From: a virus
Virus record (IMG/VR): IMGVR_UViG_3300045988_077974
Length of the DNA: 57,763 nt
Reading direction: 5' to 3' (one strand)
The translations under genes were made by a program, and so were the position numbers. The notes beneath the pieces were generated by a model. It made no database searches. It saw nothing but the letters and a program-made list of their open reading frames with translations, and was not told the DNA's origin. Shown here in pieces: positions 3,724-57,763 of this stretch; positions within the stretch are counted from its first letter, which is position 1; the number at the start of each line of letters is the position of its first letter.

Positions 3724-3756
3724 TAAAAAAAGGGGGGGCATATGCCCCCTTTTGAT
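3724..3756. terminator. Bidirectional terminator between the convergent CI-like and endolysin genes
   Basis: Perfect palindrome GGGGGCATATGCCCCC (3734-3749) flanked by an A-run and a T-run. Confidence 0.75.
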
Positions 3757-30241: not shown

Positions 30242-30434
30242 TGTTTTCACTCCTGTTGTATATTGATTATGGTTAATGCTGTCAAGAGCAGGTCTTTTTG
30301 TTTTTGAGAATATTTGGGGGGCTTAGTACGCCCGCTAGGGCGTCCGGTACAGAGGGGGACGCCCCTTTTTCATCTGGAGCCGTGAAATGGTCCCGAAATG
30401 GTGATTTTTCTTCCGGTTTCCTGCCGTTCCTTTG

Positions 30435-42270: not shown

Positions 42271-43116
42271 TTATCCCTCCTGTCTCCTAATAGCGTTTAT
42301 CAACTCATACATATTTTCTTTAGCAATCCTATCTCTCACGCTTTCCTCCGGGAACGGTAATACAAAAGACCTCTCCTTGATACGGTTTACAATGCGATCA
42401 TCGTATCCGAGATTTTCTATGCCGGAATTGCTGGTGTAAATCGTCACATTTTTGTCCATATAGCGTGAATTGATAATTTGATAAAACCTTTCGCTTATCC
42501 ACGCCTTTTCACCCTGTTCCACATCGAAATCGTCAATAATTAACACTTCCGTGTTGGATAACTGGTTAATCAGCTCGCTTTCGCTCTGATATTCCGAGTT
42601 TTTATCCCAGCTTTTCTTGATTTCTGCCAAAATTTGCAGCGAAGTAGCGAATTTAACCTGTATACCCTTGTCCATCAATTCATTAGCAAGACTAACCGCC
42701 ATTCTGGTTTTTCCGCTCCCTTTAGTTTGTGAGTAAATGTACAAGCCCTTCCCTTGCCCTTTTAAGGCACTAAAATTATTTAGGTAATAGTTTATACCTT
42801 TGACAGCATTTCGTGCCGCATTTTGGCAATTAGGGCTATTGTAGGCGGCAATATCAAAACTGCTGATGCGTAATTTGCTAAAATTCGACGGCAAATTAGC
42901 AAATCGCATCCGATTTTCTTCAATCTGCCTCCTGCGGATACCACACTTACACTCCCGGCAGAATGTGTAACCGTCTTTCTCATATTCTTCCCACCCAGTA
43001 TCGTTACATACCGGGCAGGAATGCTTTGGTTCTTCATCAATGTGCCTCTCGGAAGAATTTCTCATAATCTGAATATCCGCCATCACTTTGTCTATTGTCC
43101 TGTCTATTACATCCAT
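42271..43116 (-). CDS. DnaC/IstB-like AAA+ helicase loader
   Basis: Walker A GLYIYSQTKGSGKTRMAVSLANEL and Walker B VLIIDDFD, with an N-terminal CPVC..CREC zinc motif. Start uncertain (43116, 43083 or 43170). Confidence 0.8.
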   Translation of the reverse strand: MDVIDRTIDKVMADIQIMRNSSERHIDEEPKHSCPVCNDTGWEEYEKDGYTFCRECKCGIRRRQIEENRMRFANLPSNFSKLRISSFDIAAYNSPNCQNAARNAVKGINYYLNNFSALKGQGKGLYIYSQTKGSGKTRMAVSLANELMDKGIQVKFATSLQILAEIKKSWDKNSEYQSESELINQLSNTEVLIIDDFDVEQGEKAWISERFYQIINSRYMDKNVTIYTSNSGIENLGYDDRIVNRIKERSFVLPFPEESVRDRIAKENMYELINAIRRQEG

Positions 43117-43798
43117 CATTGCCTCCCTTGTAATTCTTGTCCAGATAATCAACAAACGGTGTGGCAGCACTAAGAAATGTCGTTCCGTGCTTTATGTACT
43201 CCGTAGGCGTGCCTTTCTTTTTGCATTCATCCGCATAATTTCTGACGGCTTCTAAAAGCTCCGCCTCGGAATAACCGCTGTTTACTCTGGAACAGTAACA
43301 CTCATATGCCTTACCCTTGTTGATTTTCCGTGGGTAAATTTTCCAAAATTCCTCAAATGCACATATATATTTCTTTCTTTCTTTACTTCTTACATTCTTT
43401 ATATTCTTGTTTTGTGGTTCGTCTGATGGTTCGTCTGATGGTTCGTCTGATGGTTCACCAAAATTTTCGTACCCTTGATAAACCCCGTAATTTACTACGG
43501 TTATGAGCGTTCCTCTCTTGGTTCGTTCTGTGTACAACATTTGTTCACTTTCCAGTTCACTCAAGTAACGCTTAACCTTGTTCCGAGACCATCGCCAACG
43601 TGACGCTAATTTGTCAATACTGAACATATATGATCCACGCTTCACAGACTTAACAACTCCATCAACCATCATCTTCTTATCATTGTGTTGCATAAGAAGA
43701 AGCAGATCCACCCAGGCACTTCTTTTGTCAAACGGTTCGTTAGATTGCCAAATACAGCAGTCAACCATTTTCCTGTAAAGTTTTATCCATCCGTCCAC
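43037..43798 (-). CDS. DnaD/replisome-organiser-like replication protein
   Basis: The N-terminal WIKLYRKMVDCCIWQS..F..R.AWVDLLLL pattern and the C-terminal FEEFWKIYPRK segment are typical of phage replication organisers. Immediately upstream of the loader. Confidence 0.6.
   Translation of the reverse strand: MDGWIKLYRKMVDCCIWQSNEPFDKRSAWVDLLLLMQHNDKKMMVDGVVKSVKRGSYMFSIDKLASRWRWSRNKVKRYLSELESEQMLYTERTKRGTLITVVNYGVYQGYENFGEPSDEPSDEPSDEPQNKNIKNVRSKERKKYICAFEEFWKIYPRKINKGKAYECYCSRVNSGYSEAELLEAVRNYADECKKKGTPTEYIKHGTTFLSAATPFVDYLDKNYKGGNDGCNRQDNRQSDGGYSDYEKFFREAH
43416..43456. repeat. 12-bp tandem repeat x3.4 (encodes EPSDEPSDEPSDEP linker)
   Basis: ggttcgtctgat at 43416-43427, 43428-43439 and 43440-43451, plus a partial unit. 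Confidence 0.9.
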
Positions 43799-44272: not shown

Positions 44273-45894
44273 TCATTTCTGTTCAATATTCAAATTCTTA
44301 AACATAGCACACATAACATCTACGACTATGCTGTTGCCAAACTGCTTGTATAGCTGCGAATTACTATTTACTTCTTCCATTTTGGAAATATCTTCATCGG
44401 ATACAGCCATAAGACGCCCGCATTCTCTAGGTGTTAATTTTCTAATCCTATATTGTGGCTCAATCACAAGGTTATCTTTCTGCACACTTGTCAGACAATT
44501 ACTGGTTCTTTGCGTATTCACTTCTAATCTCTGTTCTGTTGGTCTACCCACGGACCTATCGGACGGATTATCGGGATTTCTGCCACGCATAGCAACTATC
44601 TGACTTTCAAAAATTTTCGGTTCTTGACCGCCACCTTGCATAGTACTCAATGTTGGACTACACCCCCCACATCATAAATTCGGTTCGTGCTTTCAAATTT
44701 GCTTTCAAGCGAACCTATCACTTTAACTTCATTCATTAAAACAACTCCTAAATCGTGCTTTTCAGCTTTCACACACCTTGCGATGGGAAATATACCTCTT
44801 TGAAATTTCTCTGAAACTTCCGTGTAAATACTTCCTATTAATTCCATTCAATCACTCCGTTACTTCCATAATTATCAAAGCCTTTGTAGTCTCTCGCTCT
44901 CAATGTTGTTGCAATATAAATTTGTTTATCTAATGTTGCTCCTTGGTCTTTCAACAACACAGTTTCCATCTGACCGCAAGTTGCTGATTCCTGCGTCATA
45001 TTTTGCCTTGATGCAGTTTGCAACTTCTCTTCTTCCCGGTTCACAAATTGTTCCGTCAACGCAAGTCTGCTCTGCTCTGCTCTGCTCTGCTCTGCTCTGC
45101 TCTGCTCTGCTCTTAGGGATTTTATCTGGCAATGTTCCGTTGTCAATAAGTGTCTGAATAAGTTTCTGTGCCTTTTCATTGTTAATGTAATACTTTTCTT
45201 CTACATTTTCCTCTAAGTAGTCTTTAAGTTTCTTTTTGAGTGGTATAGGGTTAGGAAACTTGTAATTATATTCTCCTAAGAATGAAAACATAAAGCATCT
45301 TTCCCTATTCTGTGCTACACCATAGTTCTTAGCATTTAAGTCTTGCCAGTAATTCACATATCCCAAACTTTCAAGGAAATCTAGCCACTTTCTAAAATCC
45401 GGCATATTGTCTTGACTATGTACCTGTGGCACATTCTCCATAAACAGTATCTGCGGAAGTTCTCCGTTGCTATCTCTGATTTCAGTTAAAATTCTCTCAA
45501 CTTCCCACAGTAGACCGCTTCTTGTACCACTACCCTTAGACATTCCGGCTTGTTTTCCGGCAACTGATAAATCCGTACAAGGGAATGAATAGGTAAGTAA
45601 ATAGGTGAATGCTGCTGTGTCACAAATGTTTAAATCTTCTGCGTGGACCTTTGTTATATCCATTGTAGGAAAATTCGTTCCGTGTACTGCGTTATAACTT
45701 GCAATAGCATACTTATCAAACTCCACAACTCTGTAATGTTCAAATTTTGCACCTATTTTCTTTAACGCCATAGCCTGCGAACCATATCCGGCAAATAATT
45801 CTATCAATCGGATAGGCTTTGTTATGCTAATTGGTTCTCTTGTGAAGTCAAATATAGACATCTGATTATCACAAGAATAATTTTCAAAATTCAT
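44273..45894 (-). pseudogene. DNA (cytosine-5)-methyltransferase with several TRD-like modules, split over four reading-frame segments
   Basis: Motif I ELFAGYGS, IV SFPCTDLS, VI ENV and VIII QNRER lie in 44926..45894. TRD-like pieces are VANCIKAKYDAGISN..GNCVVE, ATTLRARDYKGF..NGVIE and RIYDVGG/SPTLSTMQGGGQEPKI. Motifs IX RKLTPRECGRLM and X GNSIVV lie in 44273..44650. Frame changes occur near 44930, near 44845 and at the C6 run 44663-44668. Confidence 0.8.
45066..45113. repeat. Pentanucleotide microsatellite (tctgc)9.6, (GCAGA)n on the coding strand
   Basis: Nine full units at 45066-45110 plus tct. Encodes (SRAEQ)3 between motif VIII and the first TRD of the methyltransferase. Confidence 0.95.
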
Positions 45895-50066: not shown

Positions 50067-50957
50067 CTACGCCTCCTCCGCTTTCATAAATTCCGGCAAA
50101 TCATCGTTTTCCTCCGCTGTCGCATCGTCAACATCGGTCGCAACGCTGTCGATAACGTCTGATTCGTCAAAATCAACGCTGTTTGCGTTCTGCTCAATAT
50201 CGTACTCGACATCTTTCTCGATCATTTCCTGCTCACTGACAACATTCAAATCGTCAATGTCGATCTCTGTGCCGGTATGCGAATTGTTGATATATTTCAG
50301 AAGCCGGTTTTTCACCGTTTTCATTGCCATCTGATCCGGAAACTTCTGGTGAGTTCCATTTCCATTCTCTTTGTATCCGTACCCCTGCTGCCAAGACTGC
50401 TTAATCTGATCCATCGTCATTACTTCCGAAATAATTTCCCCGTCATCCATAACAGCCACGGCATAAGCACCAATAATGTTATCATTGCTCATATTTTCAA
50501 AGGACTGCTCGTGAGAATCAATCACCGTCTTTGCGTTTTCCTTATGAAATTTGAAGATATCGCCTTTATAAATCACAGAAGCATTGATATCTTTCAGCCC
50601 AAAACGTCTCGCAATGCAGGTGTTTCCGTAAACGGAACGCTGACATTGTAATTTACCGCCATATGCGACTGGATAGCACTGCTTCTTTCTCATAGAAAGA
50701 CCGTCAGTGACCATTTCAATAAGGGCGTTTTCAATACTTGCTCTGCTGCAACTTTGCAAAACAGGCTTTTTATTTCTGTCAGTAGTCTCCTGTAAAATAA
50801 GCATTGCCGACATAAACTCATTGGTATAGTTGTAATCTTTCGGAAACGTCAAACCGAATTGCTCTTTCTGCTTGATCTTTACGACCATTCCCTCTGTGAA
50901 ATCTTTTGCAACCAGTTCTTTGCTTTCTGCTTCTTTAATTTCATTCTCCATAGTCAT
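50067..50957 (-). CDS. recT: RecT-family single-strand annealing protein
   Basis: MRKKQCYPVAYGGKLQCQRSVYG...IIGAYAVAVMDDGE...MTMDQIKQSW is a typical RecT core, with an acidic tail. Confidence 0.85.
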   Translation of the reverse strand: MTMENEIKEAESKELVAKDFTEGMVVKIKQKEQFGLTFPKDYNYTNEFMSAMLILQETTDRNKKPVLQSCSRASIENALIEMVTDGLSMRKKQCYPVAYGGKLQCQRSVYGNTCIARRFGLKDINASVIYKGDIFKFHKENAKTVIDSHEQSFENMSNDNIIGAYAVAVMDDGEIISEVMTMDQIKQSWQQGYGYKENGNGTHQKFPDQMAMKTVKNRLLKYINNSHTGTEIDIDDLNVVSEQEMIEKDVEYDIEQNANSVDFDESDVIDSVATDVDDATAEENDDLPEFMKAEEA

Positions 50958-51982
50958 TCCTCACTTTCAAATAATTCTTTTACATATAAATCCATTGAAT
51001 AACAAAGTTTTACGCAATTTCCGTGTAATGCATGATTTTTCCAGGAATTGTACTTCTCATAAAACTTCTTTTCTATCATTCTTCCAGATTTCACAAGCTT
51101 TACCCATGTTCTAATCTTCTTGCGGATTTTACGTTTATTCGATCCTGTAAGTTTTCTTATGTATTTTCCGTCTTTCGTAATGTAATGATGAAAACCGGTA
51201 AACAGTATCCCGTTTTTAAACGGCAATATTTGCGTTTTCCCATTCAGCGACAATCTGAGACTGGCAACAAATTCCCTTATGCAGTCAAGGCACCACATCA
51301 AATAACCTTTATCTTGGTGGATTAAGTAGAAATCGTCCATATATCGTCCGTATAGTTTTATACCTAATTCTCCGGTAATAAAACGATCTAACCCGTTAAG
51401 CGTCAACAAAGCATAAACCTGTGCAACTTGGTTTCCAAGCGGAAGCCCCAAACCATCTGTGCTGTCTATAAACAAATGATTTAACCACTTCACATATTCG
51501 TCTGTAAAATGATAGTCTACAATGTCTTTCAAAACCTCATGATCTATCTGGTAGAAAAACTTCGTAATATCACATTTAAGAATCCAACCATTAAGACCAT
51601 GCTCTCTGTAAAACTCAAGCATTTGATCTCTTAGACAATCCATTCCGAAATGAGTTCCTTTTCCTTTCTGCCCTGCATAATTGGTTTTGATAAACTCGCT
51701 TTCCAATCTCGGATGCAATATGTTGTCGCACAGACAATGTTGAACAACTTTATCCTTAAAAGAACACGATTTAATCACTCTCTCCTTAGGTTCATAGACC
51801 TTAAATTCATTGTACGGATTCATCCGGTATGTCTGATTTTCAAGCTGTTCTTTTAAAAGATGCAATCCCTCAAGGCTCATTGTCTGAAATTTTGCACTGC
51901 TGCCATTGAATTTTTTACCATATTTAGCTTTCTTATAAGCCTTATACAGATTTTCATAATCACAAATAATATCTTTATCCAT
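50954..51982 (-). CDS. DGR-type reverse transcriptase
   Basis: 342 aa. RT motifs ...ILKCDITKFFYQIDH..., GLPLGNQVAQVYA (resembles the DGR [IL]GxxxSQ motif) and GRYMDDFYLI. Sits directly 3' of a TR whose copies differ at adenines. Confidence 0.9.
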   Translation of the reverse strand: MDKDIICDYENLYKAYKKAKYGKKFNGSSAKFQTMSLEGLHLLKEQLENQTYRMNPYNEFKVYEPKERVIKSCSFKDKVVQHCLCDNILHPRLESEFIKTNYAGQKGKGTHFGMDCLRDQMLEFYREHGLNGWILKCDITKFFYQIDHEVLKDIVDYHFTDEYVKWLNHLFIDSTDGLGLPLGNQVAQVYALLTLNGLDRFITGELGIKLYGRYMDDFYLIHQDKGYLMWCLDCIREFVASLRLSLNGKTQILPFKNGILFTGFHHYITKDGKYIRKLTGSNKRKIRKKIRTWVKLVKSGRMIEKKFYEKYNSWKNHALHGNCVKLCYSMDLYVKELFESEE

Positions 51983-52003
51983 AGTAAAAATTCCTTTGTA
52001 TTT

Positions 52004-52021
52004 ATCCTTTTAGGAAAGGAT
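52004..52021 (-). other. 7-bp hairpin in the TR-RT spacer
   Basis: ATCCTTT-TAGG-AAAGGAT on the plus strand, between the TR and the RT start codon. Confidence 0.6.
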
Positions 52022-52081
52022 GCGCACTTTTTTGTATCTTTTTCCGATTTCGGCTTACTGCCTACTCTAACTGTCTGTGTA

Positions 52082-52157
52082 ATACAGAATGGGCGAACAC
52101 CGTTGTTGTTATTGTAGTTCCTGTTGTTGATATTGCCGGACGAAGCAACAACGGTTT
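52082..52157 (-). repeat. DGR template repeat (TR)
   Basis: About 76 nt. The sense strand is AAC/AAT-rich (AAT ATC AAC AAC AGG AAC TAC AAT AAC AAC AAC) and non-coding, between avd and the RT. It aligns to VR1 and VR2 with mismatches almost only at TR adenines. Confidence 0.9.
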
Positions 52158-52180
52158 ATACAGTGCGCAACCTAATAAAT

Positions 52181-52552
52181 TTATCTTTCTTTATCCTTAG
52201 TTCTCCAAGCAATCGCCATATGCTTAATGTCAGAAACCATCTTCGACCAATATTCCATGCTTTTTGCATTTATGATGTTTAGTTTCATTGATAATTCAAT
52301 GTAAAACAAAAGTTCGTCACAATGCGTTATTGCTTTGGTTTGAAGCTCCGACCGCTCCCTGCGATACAACTTCAAATCCGTTCGATTCGCTTCATACAGA
52401 TATTCATAGATTTCAAGTGCTTTATTTTGCATTTTATCCACAAGAGAAAATCTGTATTTCTTCGGATATCTATTGCAGTTTGAAGTTATCCGCAGCGTAT
52501 GTTCGGCAAGGTCTTTTGCTTTCAAGATTACCTTTAATTCCGTTCCAGCCAT
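52181..52552 (-). CDS. avd: Avd-like accessory variability determinant (four-helix-bundle, 23S rRNA IVS protein family)
   Basis: 123 aa, basic and helical. KAKDLAEHTLRITSN...YPKKYRFSLVDKMQNKALEIYEYLYEAN fits the Avd/IVS-protein pattern. Canonical position between target and TR. Confidence 0.8.
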   Translation of the reverse strand: MAGTELKVILKAKDLAEHTLRITSNCNRYPKKYRFSLVDKMQNKALEIYEYLYEANRTDLKLYRRERSELQTKAITHCDELLFYIELSMKLNIINAKSMEYWSKMVSDIKHMAIAWRTKDKER

Positions 52553-52556
52553 TTAA

Positions 52557-53165
52557 TTACTCCTCTGATTCAAAGATTGAAGAAGAAAAGATACAAAACG
52601 GGCGAACACCGTAGTCGCAATTGTAGTTCCTGATGATGAAATCGCCGGACGAAGAAACAACGGTAACCGAATATTCATAATCGTTGCAAGGTGTACTCCA
52701 AGGAGTAATAAGCCACCACCATTTTTTCTCGTTCGGAATAAGACTTCGATATTTCCTGTATTCATCTACAGTAAGAAGAGAAACGGAATCTTCGCACTTT
52801 TCATATTCCGTCTGACCGTCCAGAGATAACAGATCTCTTTCAAACTTAACGATATTTTCTTCTCCAACTTCATCGGATATCTTTTTGAGAAAATCTCCAT
52901 TCAAATATTCTCTTAAACCGCTCGATTTCCAGTCGTTAGAAGAATCGTCAAACTTCATATCTTCTTCCAAAATTTCACAAAGGCAAGAATAACCATTGTC
53001 TGTAATGTCAATAATCTTCCAGTCAAGACCTGCGATTTTAAAAGTGTCTCCAATTTTAAGGCTGGAAGGGATTTTAGAAACACTTTTCTCCGCTTTCAAA
53101 ATAGCAACATCATTCCTAAGTTCGTTGATCTGATCCTGCAAAATTTTCATTGTTAAATTAGCCAT
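52557..53165 (-). CDS. DGR target protein 1 (VR1 at the C-terminus)
   Basis: C-terminus WWWLITPWSTPCNDYEYSVTVVSSSGDFIIRNYNCDYGVRPFCIF. The overall layout (GD.F..G...W.V......LREYLN..F....vsLLTVDEY...WWW...) resembles DUF6273/CLec-like DGR targets. Alternative start at 53171. Confidence 0.85.
   Translation of the reverse strand: MANLTMKILQDQINELRNDVAILKAEKSVSKIPSSLKIGDTFKIAGLDWKIIDITDNGYSCLCEILEEDMKFDDSSNDWKSSGLREYLNGDFLKKISDEVGEENIVKFERDLLSLDGQTEYEKCEDSVSLLTVDEYRKYRSLIPNEKKWWWLITPWSTPCNDYEYSVTVVSSSGDFIIRNYNCDYGVRPFCIFSSSIFESEE
52591..52666 (-). repeat. DGR variable repeat VR1
   Basis: Aligned by hand to the TR. 9 in-frame substitutions at TR adenines and 2 at non-adenines. Confidence 0.9.
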
Positions 53166-53167
53166 AA

Positions 53168-53776
53168 TCATTCTCCTTTCGATACAAAGATATTAGATTT
53201 CAAGATACAAAATGGGCGAACACCGTTGCAGTTACCGTAGCCCCCGCAGCTGAAATTGCCGGACGAAGCAACAACGGCGATTGAATACTCCCATCCTCTT
53301 TCAGCTGTAGACCACGATGTGCAAGTCCACCACCAATCATTTAACTCGTTATTCACAAGAAGATCATTGTACTTTCTTGCTTCATCAAATGTAATAGGTC
53401 TGACCTTGCATTTAAAACGAGAAAATTCTTCCTGCATATCAACCGATGTCAAGTCGACAGAACATTCAACGATGTTTTCTTCACCAACCTCCGATTCAAT
53501 AATTGGCTGAATATCTTCCTCGATAACCTTTCTAAGATTAGATTTTCTGTAGTCTCTCGTATCATCATCAAATACGATATTTTTTGCCATAAATCCTTTT
53601 GAAATTACTGCCGTTGTTTCTGCATATTCATTCTGATCAAGCACAATAAAATCATGATCTCCAATTTTGAATGTATTGCCCGGATGCAATTCGCAAAGTT
53701 TGACTTTGCTTTTTTTCTCCTCTTCTTCAAGCCTTTTTACCAGTTCCCTTGCCATTTCCAATGTTTTACTATTCAT
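53168..53776 (-). CDS. DGR target protein 2 (VR2 at the C-terminus), paralog of target 1
   Basis: C-terminus WWWTCTSWSTAERGWEYSIAVVASSGNFSCGGYGNCNGVRPFCIL. Same architecture as target 1. RBS GGAGGG. Confidence 0.85.
   Translation of the reverse strand: MNSKTLEMARELVKRLEEEEKKSKVKLCELHPGNTFKIGDHDFIVLDQNEYAETTAVISKGFMAKNIVFDDDTRDYRKSNLRKVIEEDIQPIIESEVGEENIVECSVDLTSVDMQEEFSRFKCKVRPITFDEARKYNDLLVNNELNDWWWTCTSWSTAERGWEYSIAVVASSGNFSCGGYGNCNGVRPFCILKSNIFVSKGE
53205..53280 (-). repeat. DGR variable repeat VR2
   Basis: Aligned by hand to the TR. 12 substitutions at TR adenines and 1 at a non-adenine. Confidence 0.9.
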
Positions 53777-57148: not shown

Positions 57149-57763
57149 CTATTCAAGCTCCACAAATTCTCCGTTTTTTAATCGGTAAAACGTATCTTCT
57201 TTAATTTTTTCTCCGTCAACACATTCTGTTTTGACGCATACCGGAATCAAATAAGAATTATCGTTTTCATTTTTTCTTTCCCATTCAGCCAATGTAATCC
57301 AACTGCCAATTTTTGCTTTTGCAACAGAGTCCATTCCAGCTGCCATTATTACGGAGTGTTTGCCTTCCGATTCAATCTGTGCGTAATCTCCAGAGCTACC
57401 AATCTGCGCGTAATCTCCAGAGCTACCAATCTGTGCGTAATCTCCAGAGCTACCAATCTGTGCGGAATCTCCAGAGCTACCAATCTTTGCGGAATATCCA
57501 GAGCTACCAATCTGTGCGTAATCTCCAGAGCTACCAATCTGTGCGGAATCTCCAGAGCTACCAATCTGCGCGGAATATCCAGAGCTACCAATCTGTGCGT
57601 AATATCCAGAGCTACCAATCTTTGCGGAATCTCCAGAGCTACCAATCTGCGCGGAATATCCAGAGCTACCAATCTGTGCGGAATATCCAGAGCTACCAAT
57701 CTGTGCGTAATCTCCAGAGCTACCAATCTGTGCGTAATCTCCAGAGCTACCAATCTGTGCGGA
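57149..57763 (-). CDS. Repeat protein, C-terminal part (nonapeptide repeats plus 65-aa tail); 5' end leaves the window
   Basis: The frame of track ORF 57149..57346 stays open upstream through every repeat. Hand check gives ...SAQIGSSGDYAQIGSSGDYAQIESEGKHSVIMAAGMDSV... The track ORF 57349..57753 (HRLVALEIT) is a different, probably non-coding frame. Confidence 0.7.
   Translation of the reverse strand, partial: SAQIGSSGDYAQIGSSGDYAQIGSSGYSAQIGSSGYSAQIGSSGDSAKIGSSGYYAQIGSSGYSAQIGSSGDSAQIGSSGDYAQIGSSGYSAKIGSSGDSAQIGSSGDYAQIGSSGDYAQIGSSGDYAQIESEGKHSVIMAAGMDSVAKAKIGSWITLAEWERKNENDNSYLIPVCVKTECVDGEKIKEDTFYRLKNGEFVELE
57373..57763. repeat. 27-bp tandem repeat, about 14 units
   Basis: Units start at 57383. 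Variants are gta/gga, atc/ata and ctgtgc/ctgcgc/ctttgc. Continues at 1..108. Confidence 0.95.

Follow-up and report, generated by a model that had tools for sequence, protein, structure and literature searches.

IMG/VR virus record IMGVR_UViG_3300045988_077974 – a stretch of 57,763 nucleotides (nt), referred to here as the window (57.7 kb) – carries on its minus strand, at 45894–44273, a gene for a C5-cytosine DNA methyltransferase with multiple target-recognition domains (TRDs), divided among four open reading frame (ORF) segments in three frames (0, +1, 0, +2). Comparison with relatives suggests that this gene, which looks broken, is one kept under selection, its frame being reset by fast-mutating short repeats, which leaves related phages with differing forms of the enzyme: the locus is probably a contingency locus of a temperate Lachnospiraceae phage, in which a multi-TRD C5-methyltransferase is made from two ORFs and switched by a microsatellite and by poly-G tracts. 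The tracts are hypervariable, the microsatellite has three frame outcomes, the two-ORF layout is conserved and every part of the gene is under purifying selection. All coordinates are those of the window, the gene strand being the minus strand.

The original prediction, made from the letters of the window alone, had described a multi-TRD C5-methyltransferase with a (GCAGA)9 microsatellite and a G6 tract, and Tandem Repeats Finder (TRF), Pfam and the motif positions place the repeat, the tract and the motifs on the minus strand exactly where it had put them. It had also assigned motifs I, IV, VI and VIII to one ORF and motifs IX–X to another part of the gene, and the Pfam profile PF00145 is indeed split in this way: positions 2–231 of its 324 match ORF1 (E = 2.6e-48), and positions 257–322 match the last ORF (44650–44273), covering motifs IX–X. 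The order of a C5-methyltransferase – motifs I, IV, VI and VIII, a variable region, then IX and X – is present, spread in the window copy over more than one polypeptide; M.MpeI and M.HhaI are the best solved relatives of the enzyme. Where four frames had been counted, there are four segments in only three frames, and the three TRD-like modules that had been proposed, all outside the catalytic ORF, are in fact five, between motifs VIII and IX, with the first of them (TRD1) sharing its ORF with the catalytic motifs. The same modules recur in relatives in other combinations and orders. Each TRD presumably has a distinct target, and among characterised homologues none is close enough to give any of them a known specificity.

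Just downstream of the catalytic part lies the microsatellite, hereafter SSR1 (simple sequence repeat 1), the sole microsatellite with a period of up to 5 nt in the window. TRF reports it as TCTGC ×9.6 with 100% matches, which is GCAGA on the gene strand; it lies within the coding region, and a change of unit number shifts the frame. What follows depends on how the junction element directly 3′ of the repeat is read. In frame A the element encodes TCVDGT, the start of TRD1, and the reading continues through ...ANCIKARYDxGISN to a stop; in frame B it encodes LALTEQ, an open linker over the TRD1 DNA, after which comes TRD2, ending in GVIEWK/N and a stop; in frame C it encodes DLR, followed at once by a stop. 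The window is in phase A, with an ORF1 of 322 amino acids (aa) that includes TRD1. Adding one GCAGA unit (likewise four, and so on) yields an ORF1 of 353 aa that reads TRD2 (phase B), and removing one yields an ORF1 of 277 aa ending in DLR (phase C), which bears out the claim that the repeat is currently in frame and that any unit change would shift it. SSR1 is thus a frame selector for all ORF1 sequence downstream, to which it appends TRD1, TRD2 or nothing. The earlier view of the repeat as a phase switch stands insofar as it selects the frame; it fails insofar as the outcome is not simple ON/OFF but TRD1, TRD2 or a stop. Among 55 loci, 16 are in phase A, 26 in phase B and 13 in phase C.

The comparison set included 80 viral contigs, with catalytic domains 91–100% identical. 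Protein searches had returned dozens of N-terminal ORFs (300–357 aa, 80–94% identical) on contigs of ~57 kb, differing in their number of SRAEQ or DRQT units and bearing one of two alternative C-terminal tails; the hosts, as indicated by metagenome-assembled genomes, are Lachnospiraceae of the human gut, including Roseburia. At the SSR1 site these relatives carry 3–11 units of GCAGA, or GACA in 4 to at least 23 units; interruptions (GGCA or AACA) occur in some tracts, one NCBI metagenome contig has (AGAAC)9, and relatives that lack a repeat have a single SRAE motif. A nucleotide search of phages gave Dulem virus 39 as the sole informative relative, with an unbroken gene of 527 aa and no repeat, and an exact-sequence lookup of window ORF1 (P0008) returned no contig match.

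The tracts differ even between nearly identical phages. Over the 1.62-kb gene, the window and relative L002 are separated by two single-nucleotide polymorphisms (SNPs), one additional GCAGA unit in L002 (10 units, which reads the TRD2 frame, phase B) and G8 instead of G6. In a test of locus pairs with at most five substitutions in 997 flanking nt (25 pairs), SSR1 length differs in 20 of the 25, some of them with zero substitutions, and the poly-G tract in TRD4 differs in 10 of 18 close pairs. Within the window's own lineage (signature LPDKIPK), DNA sequences have 4 (L093), 9 (the window) and 10 (L002) units, and protein sequences imply a further 8 and 21, so that together all three phases are covered. 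Tract length is therefore polymorphic among near-identical genomes with all phases present, as in contingency genes, and in these comparisons tract mutation far outruns point substitution.

About 11 independent contigs end within (GACA)n or (GCAGA)n (L014, L022, L025, L075, L079, L052, L010, L018, L043, L054, L082), and five of these stop at an identical offset, 91 nt past the LIDNG anchor. Such ends are no more than indirect evidence of switching within a population. This repeat is evidently a place where assemblies break off, whether through a k-mer limit, length heterogeneity or both.

This assembler trouble, and the position of one break at a G homopolymer, are what could be said for sequencing or assembly errors at low-complexity sequence concealing a true gene of one ORF, an explanation that the original prediction had left open and that has next to no probability. 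Repeats of 4 to at least 23 units are found in independent assemblies (from 3 units if all repeat types are counted), and two of the three junctions, the TRD1/TRD2 and TRD2/ORF2 offsets, lack a homopolymer and recur in independent JGI, ENA and NCBI assemblies. No other gene of the window is visibly fragmented (ORFs of 1477, 940, 638 and 578 aa are unbroken), and correcting G6 to G7 still gives no single ORF.

The offset between TRD1 and TRD2 has a simple basis. TRD1 is a cassette of 85 nt with an imperfect copy of the junction element on either side (the second at 44962–44982); because 85 equals 1 modulo 3, the cassette sets TRD2 in the +1 frame and the two TRDs can never be read together. In locus L039, exactly these 85 nt are absent. 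In 35 loci, precisely 223 nt separate the post-repeat junction from the ORF2 ATG, and the ORF2 start context AATGGAGTRATTGAATGGAA (GGAG, 7 nt, ATG), which overlaps the stop of the TRD2 frame, is kept in 44 loci. A split layout of the M.AquI type – ORF1 and ORF2, stop/start overlap, GGAG-7-ATG – is in this way preserved in 35–44 loci. The junctions near 44930 and 44845, formerly read as breaks, are nucleotide-identical in 35 relatives; they are a conserved dual-frame, two-ORF architecture and not lesions. Under this layout, the repeat does not simply turn one long ORF on and off. ORF2 runs unbroken through motif X (250–390 aa) in 17 of the 44 loci, whatever the SSR1 phase; one of these relatives, L094, combines (GCAGA)9, phase A and G7 with an unbroken ORF2 of 254 aa. 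In the window, ORF2 is interrupted in addition by the G6 tract. A single full-length ORF occurs only in L015, L050 and L095, each of which lacks one module.

Two further kinds of sequence at the TRD boundaries may be recorded here. In loci with a MEKLTDAIG-type TRD3 (e.g. L004, L017), an A5 run (GAATGGAAAAACTGA) lies at the TRD2/TRD3 boundary, and in P0099 this run is A6 and both TRDs are fused in frame (GVIEWKKLTDAIG), which suggests that a single-base change in the A run gave rise to the two-ORF layout of this subtype, or can reverse it. Every TRD boundary, moreover, has the pattern G-V-(I/V)-x-(V/L)-M, corresponding in DNA to GGAG, 7–10 nt and ATG; examples, with the boundary marked by a slash, are window 44734–44760 (LGVVLM/NEVKVIG) and relatives (GVIEVM/ADVNVIG). 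As this resembles a ribosome-binding site with a start codon, internal initiation might give C-terminal fragments even from single-ORF genes.

The A runs bear on another possibility, namely that the junctions or tracts are sites of programmed ribosomal frameshifting or of transcriptional slippage, which would yield a full-length enzyme. The A5 run of some relatives and the in-frame A6 fusion of P0099 would suit it, and G6–G8 runs could permit low-level slippage; yet the TRD2/ORF2 junction of the window (GAATGGAATTAATAGG) contains no slippery sequence, nor does the TRD1-to-TRD2 shift, and the conserved GGAG-ATG at the junction indicates separate initiation. We regard this possibility as very improbable, and frameshifting at the TRD2/ORF2 junction was rejected as a general mechanism, the A5/A6 run of the relatives being absent from the window.

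A near-consensus match to a sigma-70-type promoter (45146–45119, minus strand: TTGACA, 16 nt, TAAAAT; 11 of 12 positions) sits within ORF1, 6 nt upstream of the microsatellite, with its -35 element formed by the conserved LIDN codons; in most relatives the -10 element is weaker (CACAAT). It could drive ORF2 independently or be a coincidence. Promoter-like sites occur in the region at chance level (8 found against 7.3 expected), and no claim is drawn from this one.

The second kind of tract is poly-G. As predicted, one G added to the G6 tract restores the frame, giving ...NRIYDVGGCSPTLSTMQGGG... and an ORF2 of 191 aa; even then the window gene has no single ORF. The TRD4 tract (DVGG/CSPTL, the slash marking the tract's downstream side) ranges from G5 to G9 over 43 loci, with the in-frame length G7 as its mode; the tract of another TRD (RGG/ICPTL) ranges from G5 to G8 and likewise has its mode at G7, and a third variable G run, absent from the window, is found in some TRD3 variants. 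L002 and L093, which are near-identical to the window, both have G8 in the TRD4 tract. G6 is an out-of-frame (OFF) length that truncates ORF2 in the window, and this tract is the only ON/OFF break in the window copy. GGGGGG encodes not one of the 53 Gly-Gly dipeptides in 40 other ORFs of the window, and 11% of Gly codons there are GGG; these counts exclude a chance origin of the features. Two other G runs of the window (3732–3738 and 30316–30321) were considered as coding switches and rejected, both being intergenic and hairpin-associated.

Selection was gauged from the ratio of nonsynonymous to synonymous polymorphism (pN/pS), as pooled Nei-Gojobori estimates with each module in its own frame. 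The N-domain has a pN/pS of 0.08 (pS 0.33) and no stop codon in 68 loci, and low values are also seen for TRD5 (0.14; 64 loci), motifs IX–X (0.063; 66 loci) and the parts of TRD3 and TRD4 (0.03–0.26; 0.04–0.26 for those in ORF2a). For the two alternative domains, constraint follows the predicted frame: TRD1 gives 0.157 in frame A as opposed to 1.6 in frame B, and TRD2 gives 0.45 in frame B as opposed to 0.97 in A and 0.70 in C, its frame-B reading being stopped in only 1 of 35 relatives. An excess of variable third positions is present within the 35 two-ORF loci taken alone, where variable sites at first, second and third positions number 59/41/176 in the N-domain, 14/8/45 in motifs IX–X, 8/9/18 in TRD1 and 15/18/30 in TRD2. 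Among 18 loci of the same architecture (93.8% mean identity), frame-breaking indels occur solely in poly-G tracts, the other indels being of 6 and 15 nt. As expected of a contingency gene, purifying selection is kept and frameshifts are confined to the tracts.

These values bear directly on the notion of a plain decaying pseudogene, that is, random frameshifts in an unused gene, which had also been left open and is highly unlikely. It would account for a gene in four pieces, and for motifs IX–X having no in-frame start other than TTG or an internal ATG. Against it, two of the three breaks are the nucleotide-identical junctions described above, the third falls in a tract that varies from G5 to G9 around an in-frame mode, the N-domain is strongly constrained with zero stops in 68 relatives, and L002 differs from the window only at two tracts and 2 SNPs. 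Decaying pseudogene and sequencing error are thus both excluded as main explanations, and of what had originally been proposed it is the phase-variable gene that the comparison strongly supports: tracts are polymorphic in near-identical phages, all frames are populated and every module is under selection.

Less easily set aside, though still unlikely, is the view that the repeats are hypermutable without being adaptive – hot spots that repeatedly inactivate a dispensable gene, the two-ORF copies being dead and the single-ORF relatives functional. It gains from the GGCA/AACA interruptions in some tracts, as in decaying repeats, and from Streptococcus prophages in which C5-methyltransferases are annotated as two coding sequences (CDS) with no microsatellite. 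It is difficult to reconcile with the strong purifying selection that every module shows in the 35 two-ORF loci, at a synonymous divergence of 0.2–0.45, with the lack of any stop codon or frameshift outside the tracts, with three repeat units having arisen at one site and long perfect tracts having been kept there, with a GGGGGG-coded Gly-Gly found nowhere else in the genome, and with the conservation of the ribosome-binding site and start codon of ORF2.

Several points weigh against a contingency locus, the first two of them also speaking for the non-adaptive view. Whatever states the tracts take, the common layout never encodes a single full-length polypeptide, which would leave most copies permanently off should the enzyme need to be one chain. 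Of the 44 loci, 27 have a broken ORF2. The tract variation observed is variation between assemblies. Constraint on TRD2 is only moderate, at 0.45; the pN/pS values of short segments are biased downward by these having been located through motifs; and module exchange among phages could be importing part of the selection signal. The open +1 frame over TRD1, taken as a candidate sign of design, arises by chance with P = 0.27 under synonymous reshuffling and is counted as weak.

Within the contingency-locus reading, a more specific account is possible and is offered tentatively: the phase of the microsatellite may pick one of two TRDs in different frames, or neither, for the catalytic subunit of a split C5-methyltransferase, with poly-G gating the second subunit, so that one prophage lineage would continually yield progeny with differing 5-methylcytosine (5mC) repertoires. 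In the contingency-locus reading itself, slipped-strand mispairing at SSR1 would shift the ribosome among three frames just past the catalytic domain, phase A adding TRD1 (322 aa), phase B adding TRD2 (353 aa) and phase C stopping (~277 aa); poly-G tracts coding for Gly-Gly within TRDs would turn ORF2, with further TRDs and motifs IX–X, on or off; and ORF2 translation would initiate separately at the conserved GGAG-ATG. The two polypeptides presumably form the active enzyme, as suggested by the conserved start signal, the selection on both parts and the precedent of M.AquI and M.EcoHK31I. Switching presumably also takes place within one population, which would then be a mix of methylation repertoires, including none, and would be insured both against hosts that restrict unmethylated DNA and against restriction of methylated DNA. 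Bet-hedging between these two types of defence is the likely adaptive value of the locus, as has just been shown for the poly-A tracts of T2 agt.

Table 1. Layout of the methyltransferase locus in the window (57.7 kb)
Feature	Position	Strand	Description
ORF1, 322 aa	44926–45894	minus	Catalytic large-domain part, linker, repeat, TRD1, 13-aa tail; stop 44926–44928
Motif I	45778–45795	minus	In ORF1
Motif IV (PC)	45565–45585	minus	In ORF1
Motif VI (ENV)	45430–45438	minus	In ORF1
Motif VIII (QxRxR)	45298–45312	minus	In ORF1
Linker LIDNGTLPDKIPK		minus	In ORF1, between catalytic motifs and repeat
SSR1, (GCAGA)9.6	45066–45113	minus	SRAEQ ×3 when translated; Tandem Repeats Finder
Junction element ACTTGCGTTGACGG	45053–45066	minus	Directly 3′ of repeat
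TRD1 (TCVDGTICEPGRREVANCIKAKYDAGISN)	44980–45066	minus	ORF1 frame (phase A); read in window
TRD2 (TCGQMETVLL...TTLRARDYKGFDNYGSNGVIEWN)	44841–44981	minus	+1 frame (phase B); stop TAA 44838–44840
ORF2 start element	44842–44858	minus	GGAG 44855–44858, 7 nt, ATG 44845–44847; overlaps end of TRD2 frame
ORF2a, 66 aa	44647–44847	minus	ORF1 frame; TRD3 and first half of TRD4; stop 44647–44649
TRD3 (MELIGSIYTEV...ARCVKAEKHD)	44734–44847	minus	In ORF2a
TRD4, first half (...KFESTNRIYDVGG)	44662–44733	minus	In ORF2a
Poly-G tract, G6	44663–44668	minus (C6 on plus strand)	Inside TRD4
C-terminal segment	44273–44662	minus	+2 frame; stop 44273–44275
TRD4, second half (CSPTLSTMQGGG)	44600–44662	minus	+2 frame
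TRD5 (IVAMRGRNPDNPSDR...SNCLTSVQKDN)	44453–44599	minus	+2 frame
Motif IX	44408–44452	minus	+2 frame
Motif X	44315–44344	minus	+2 frame

Elsewhere in the window, an ORF at 50954–51982 (minus strand) encodes a reverse transcriptase (Pfam RVT_1, E = 2e-14) and is adjoined by a 74-nt repeat (52082–52155), diverged copies of which lie at 52591–52664 (85%) and 53205–53278 (82%), in ORFs 52557–53171 and 53168–53776. Many of the differences between copies fall at plus-strand T, which is A on the gene strand, and the region 50954–53776 (minus strand) is likely a diversity-generating retroelement; if so, it would be a second hypervariation system of the phage, independent of the first. At both ends of the window there is a 27-nt tandem repeat (CAATCTGTGCGGAATCTCCAGAGCTAC), with 4 copies at 3–109 and 14.5 at 57373–57763, and the contig is probably circular and broken within an array of ~18 copies. 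Its period equals 9 codons, and an ORF spanning the array (57349–57753, minus strand) has no Pfam match. Finally, a perfect 12-nt repeat (×3.5, 43415–43456) codes for (PSDE)n in the minus-strand ORF 43037–43798, upstream of a helicase-loader-like gene; changes in this repeat keep the frame because its unit is a multiple of 3.

Related C5-methyltransferases in two CDS are present in Streptococcus phages Javan179 (L091; MK448694.1, 12603–13881) and Javan141 (L092). In the Javan-type split, one CDS contains the N-domain and one TRD, the other, in the +1 frame, contains TRDs and motifs IX–X, and the junction has A7 runs nearby. Firmicutes prophages may commonly carry multi-TRD methyltransferases that are split or broken.

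The proposal of contingency loci in phages dates only from a 2025 preprint, which covers coliphage homopolymers (bioRxiv 10.1101/2025.10.21.683753). With the present locus the idea would reach abundant temperate phages of Lachnospiraceae in the human gut, microsatellites of 4–5 nt and DNA methylation, and it would gain, beyond on/off control, a switch that chooses which recognition domain is made. If the more specific, split-enzyme account is true, this virus has a device for combinatorial epigenetic bet-hedging. The locus offers a directly testable model of how a phage weighs escape from Type II restriction against vulnerability to methylation-dependent restriction. More generally, a methyltransferase gene that looks ‘fragmented’ in a virome may still function and ought not to be dismissed as a pseudogene, and a contig that breaks off at such a repeat may reflect real biology.

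Among cellular systems, the closest parallels are the phase-variable bacterial methyltransferases, among them Type III Mod phasevarions, Type I hsdS/hsdM systems with simple sequence repeats (NgoAV) and the Type IIG cj0031 (PMC7383803, PMC9577141, PMC4889913). The likeness lies in a 4–5-nt repeat or poly-G in the coding region, in tract lengths that vary between close relatives and in frame changes that alter expression or specificity. The bacterial enzymes, however, are cellular, modify adenine at N6 and belong to the restriction-modification systems of pathogens, whereas the window enzyme is an orphan phage C5-cytosine methyltransferase from gut Firmicutes; and, unlike in those enzymes, its repeat sits at the hinge where the catalytic domain meets the TRD array, with three phases that give two alternative TRDs or a stop, and several independent tracts lie in the one gene.

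The original prediction had also compared the gene with the multispecific methyltransferases of Bacillus phages SPR and phi3T, and as an analogy of multi-TRD organisation this stands: like the enzymes of SPR, phi3T, rho11s and H2 and like M.phiBssHII, it is of phage or prophage origin and has one catalytic core (I–VIII, IX–X) with tandem short TRDs, in modules that are reshuffled. Close kin they are not, the Bacillus-phage hits being about 28–50% identical and limited to the N-domain; the likeness is one of organisation, not of close family. To our knowledge, the Bacillus phage enzymes are single constitutive ORFs, and we know of no description of repeats, alternative frames or split ORFs in them.

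For the division itself, there are natural precedents in M.AquI and M.EcoHK31I, two-polypeptide C5 enzymes whose smaller subunit comprises the distal variable region and motifs IX–X; fragments of M.SssI, M.BspRI and M.HhaI split in the proximal variable region likewise complement one another without overlap (PMC3404938). The ORF1/ORF2 division of the window falls at the same kind of place, with activity of the split form here being putative. Unlike in the M.AquI type, the smaller part has several whole TRDs and the larger part a TRD selected by a repeat.

Hypermutable repeats causing reversible frameshifts are known from phages themselves. The poly-A contingency locus in T2 agt toggles DNA glucosylation between TgvAB and McrA/BC defences, and the preprint reporting it, which deals only with homopolymers, mentions in passing a poly-G in the methylase gene of phage BPP-1 (bioRxiv 10.1101/2025.10.21.683753). 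The homopolymers of T2/T4 (agt) and the poly-G of Fletchervirus receptor-binding proteins share this mode of variation with the window gene. Those loci are mononucleotide ON/OFF switches in lytic coliphages or Campylobacter phages; the window clade, unlike them, has 4–5-nt microsatellites of up to >90 nt together with poly-G, in a temperate gut phage, and alternative domains encoded in different frames. That preprint is the closest precedent found in a full-text literature search, which returned no description of a phase-variable phage C5-methyltransferase or of repeat-selected TRDs, in agreement with the earlier remark that no such phage enzyme was known. What the locus does is to combine known kinds – a methyltransferase made phase-variable by simple sequence repeats, a multispecific phage C5 enzyme and a split C5 enzyme – in one gene.

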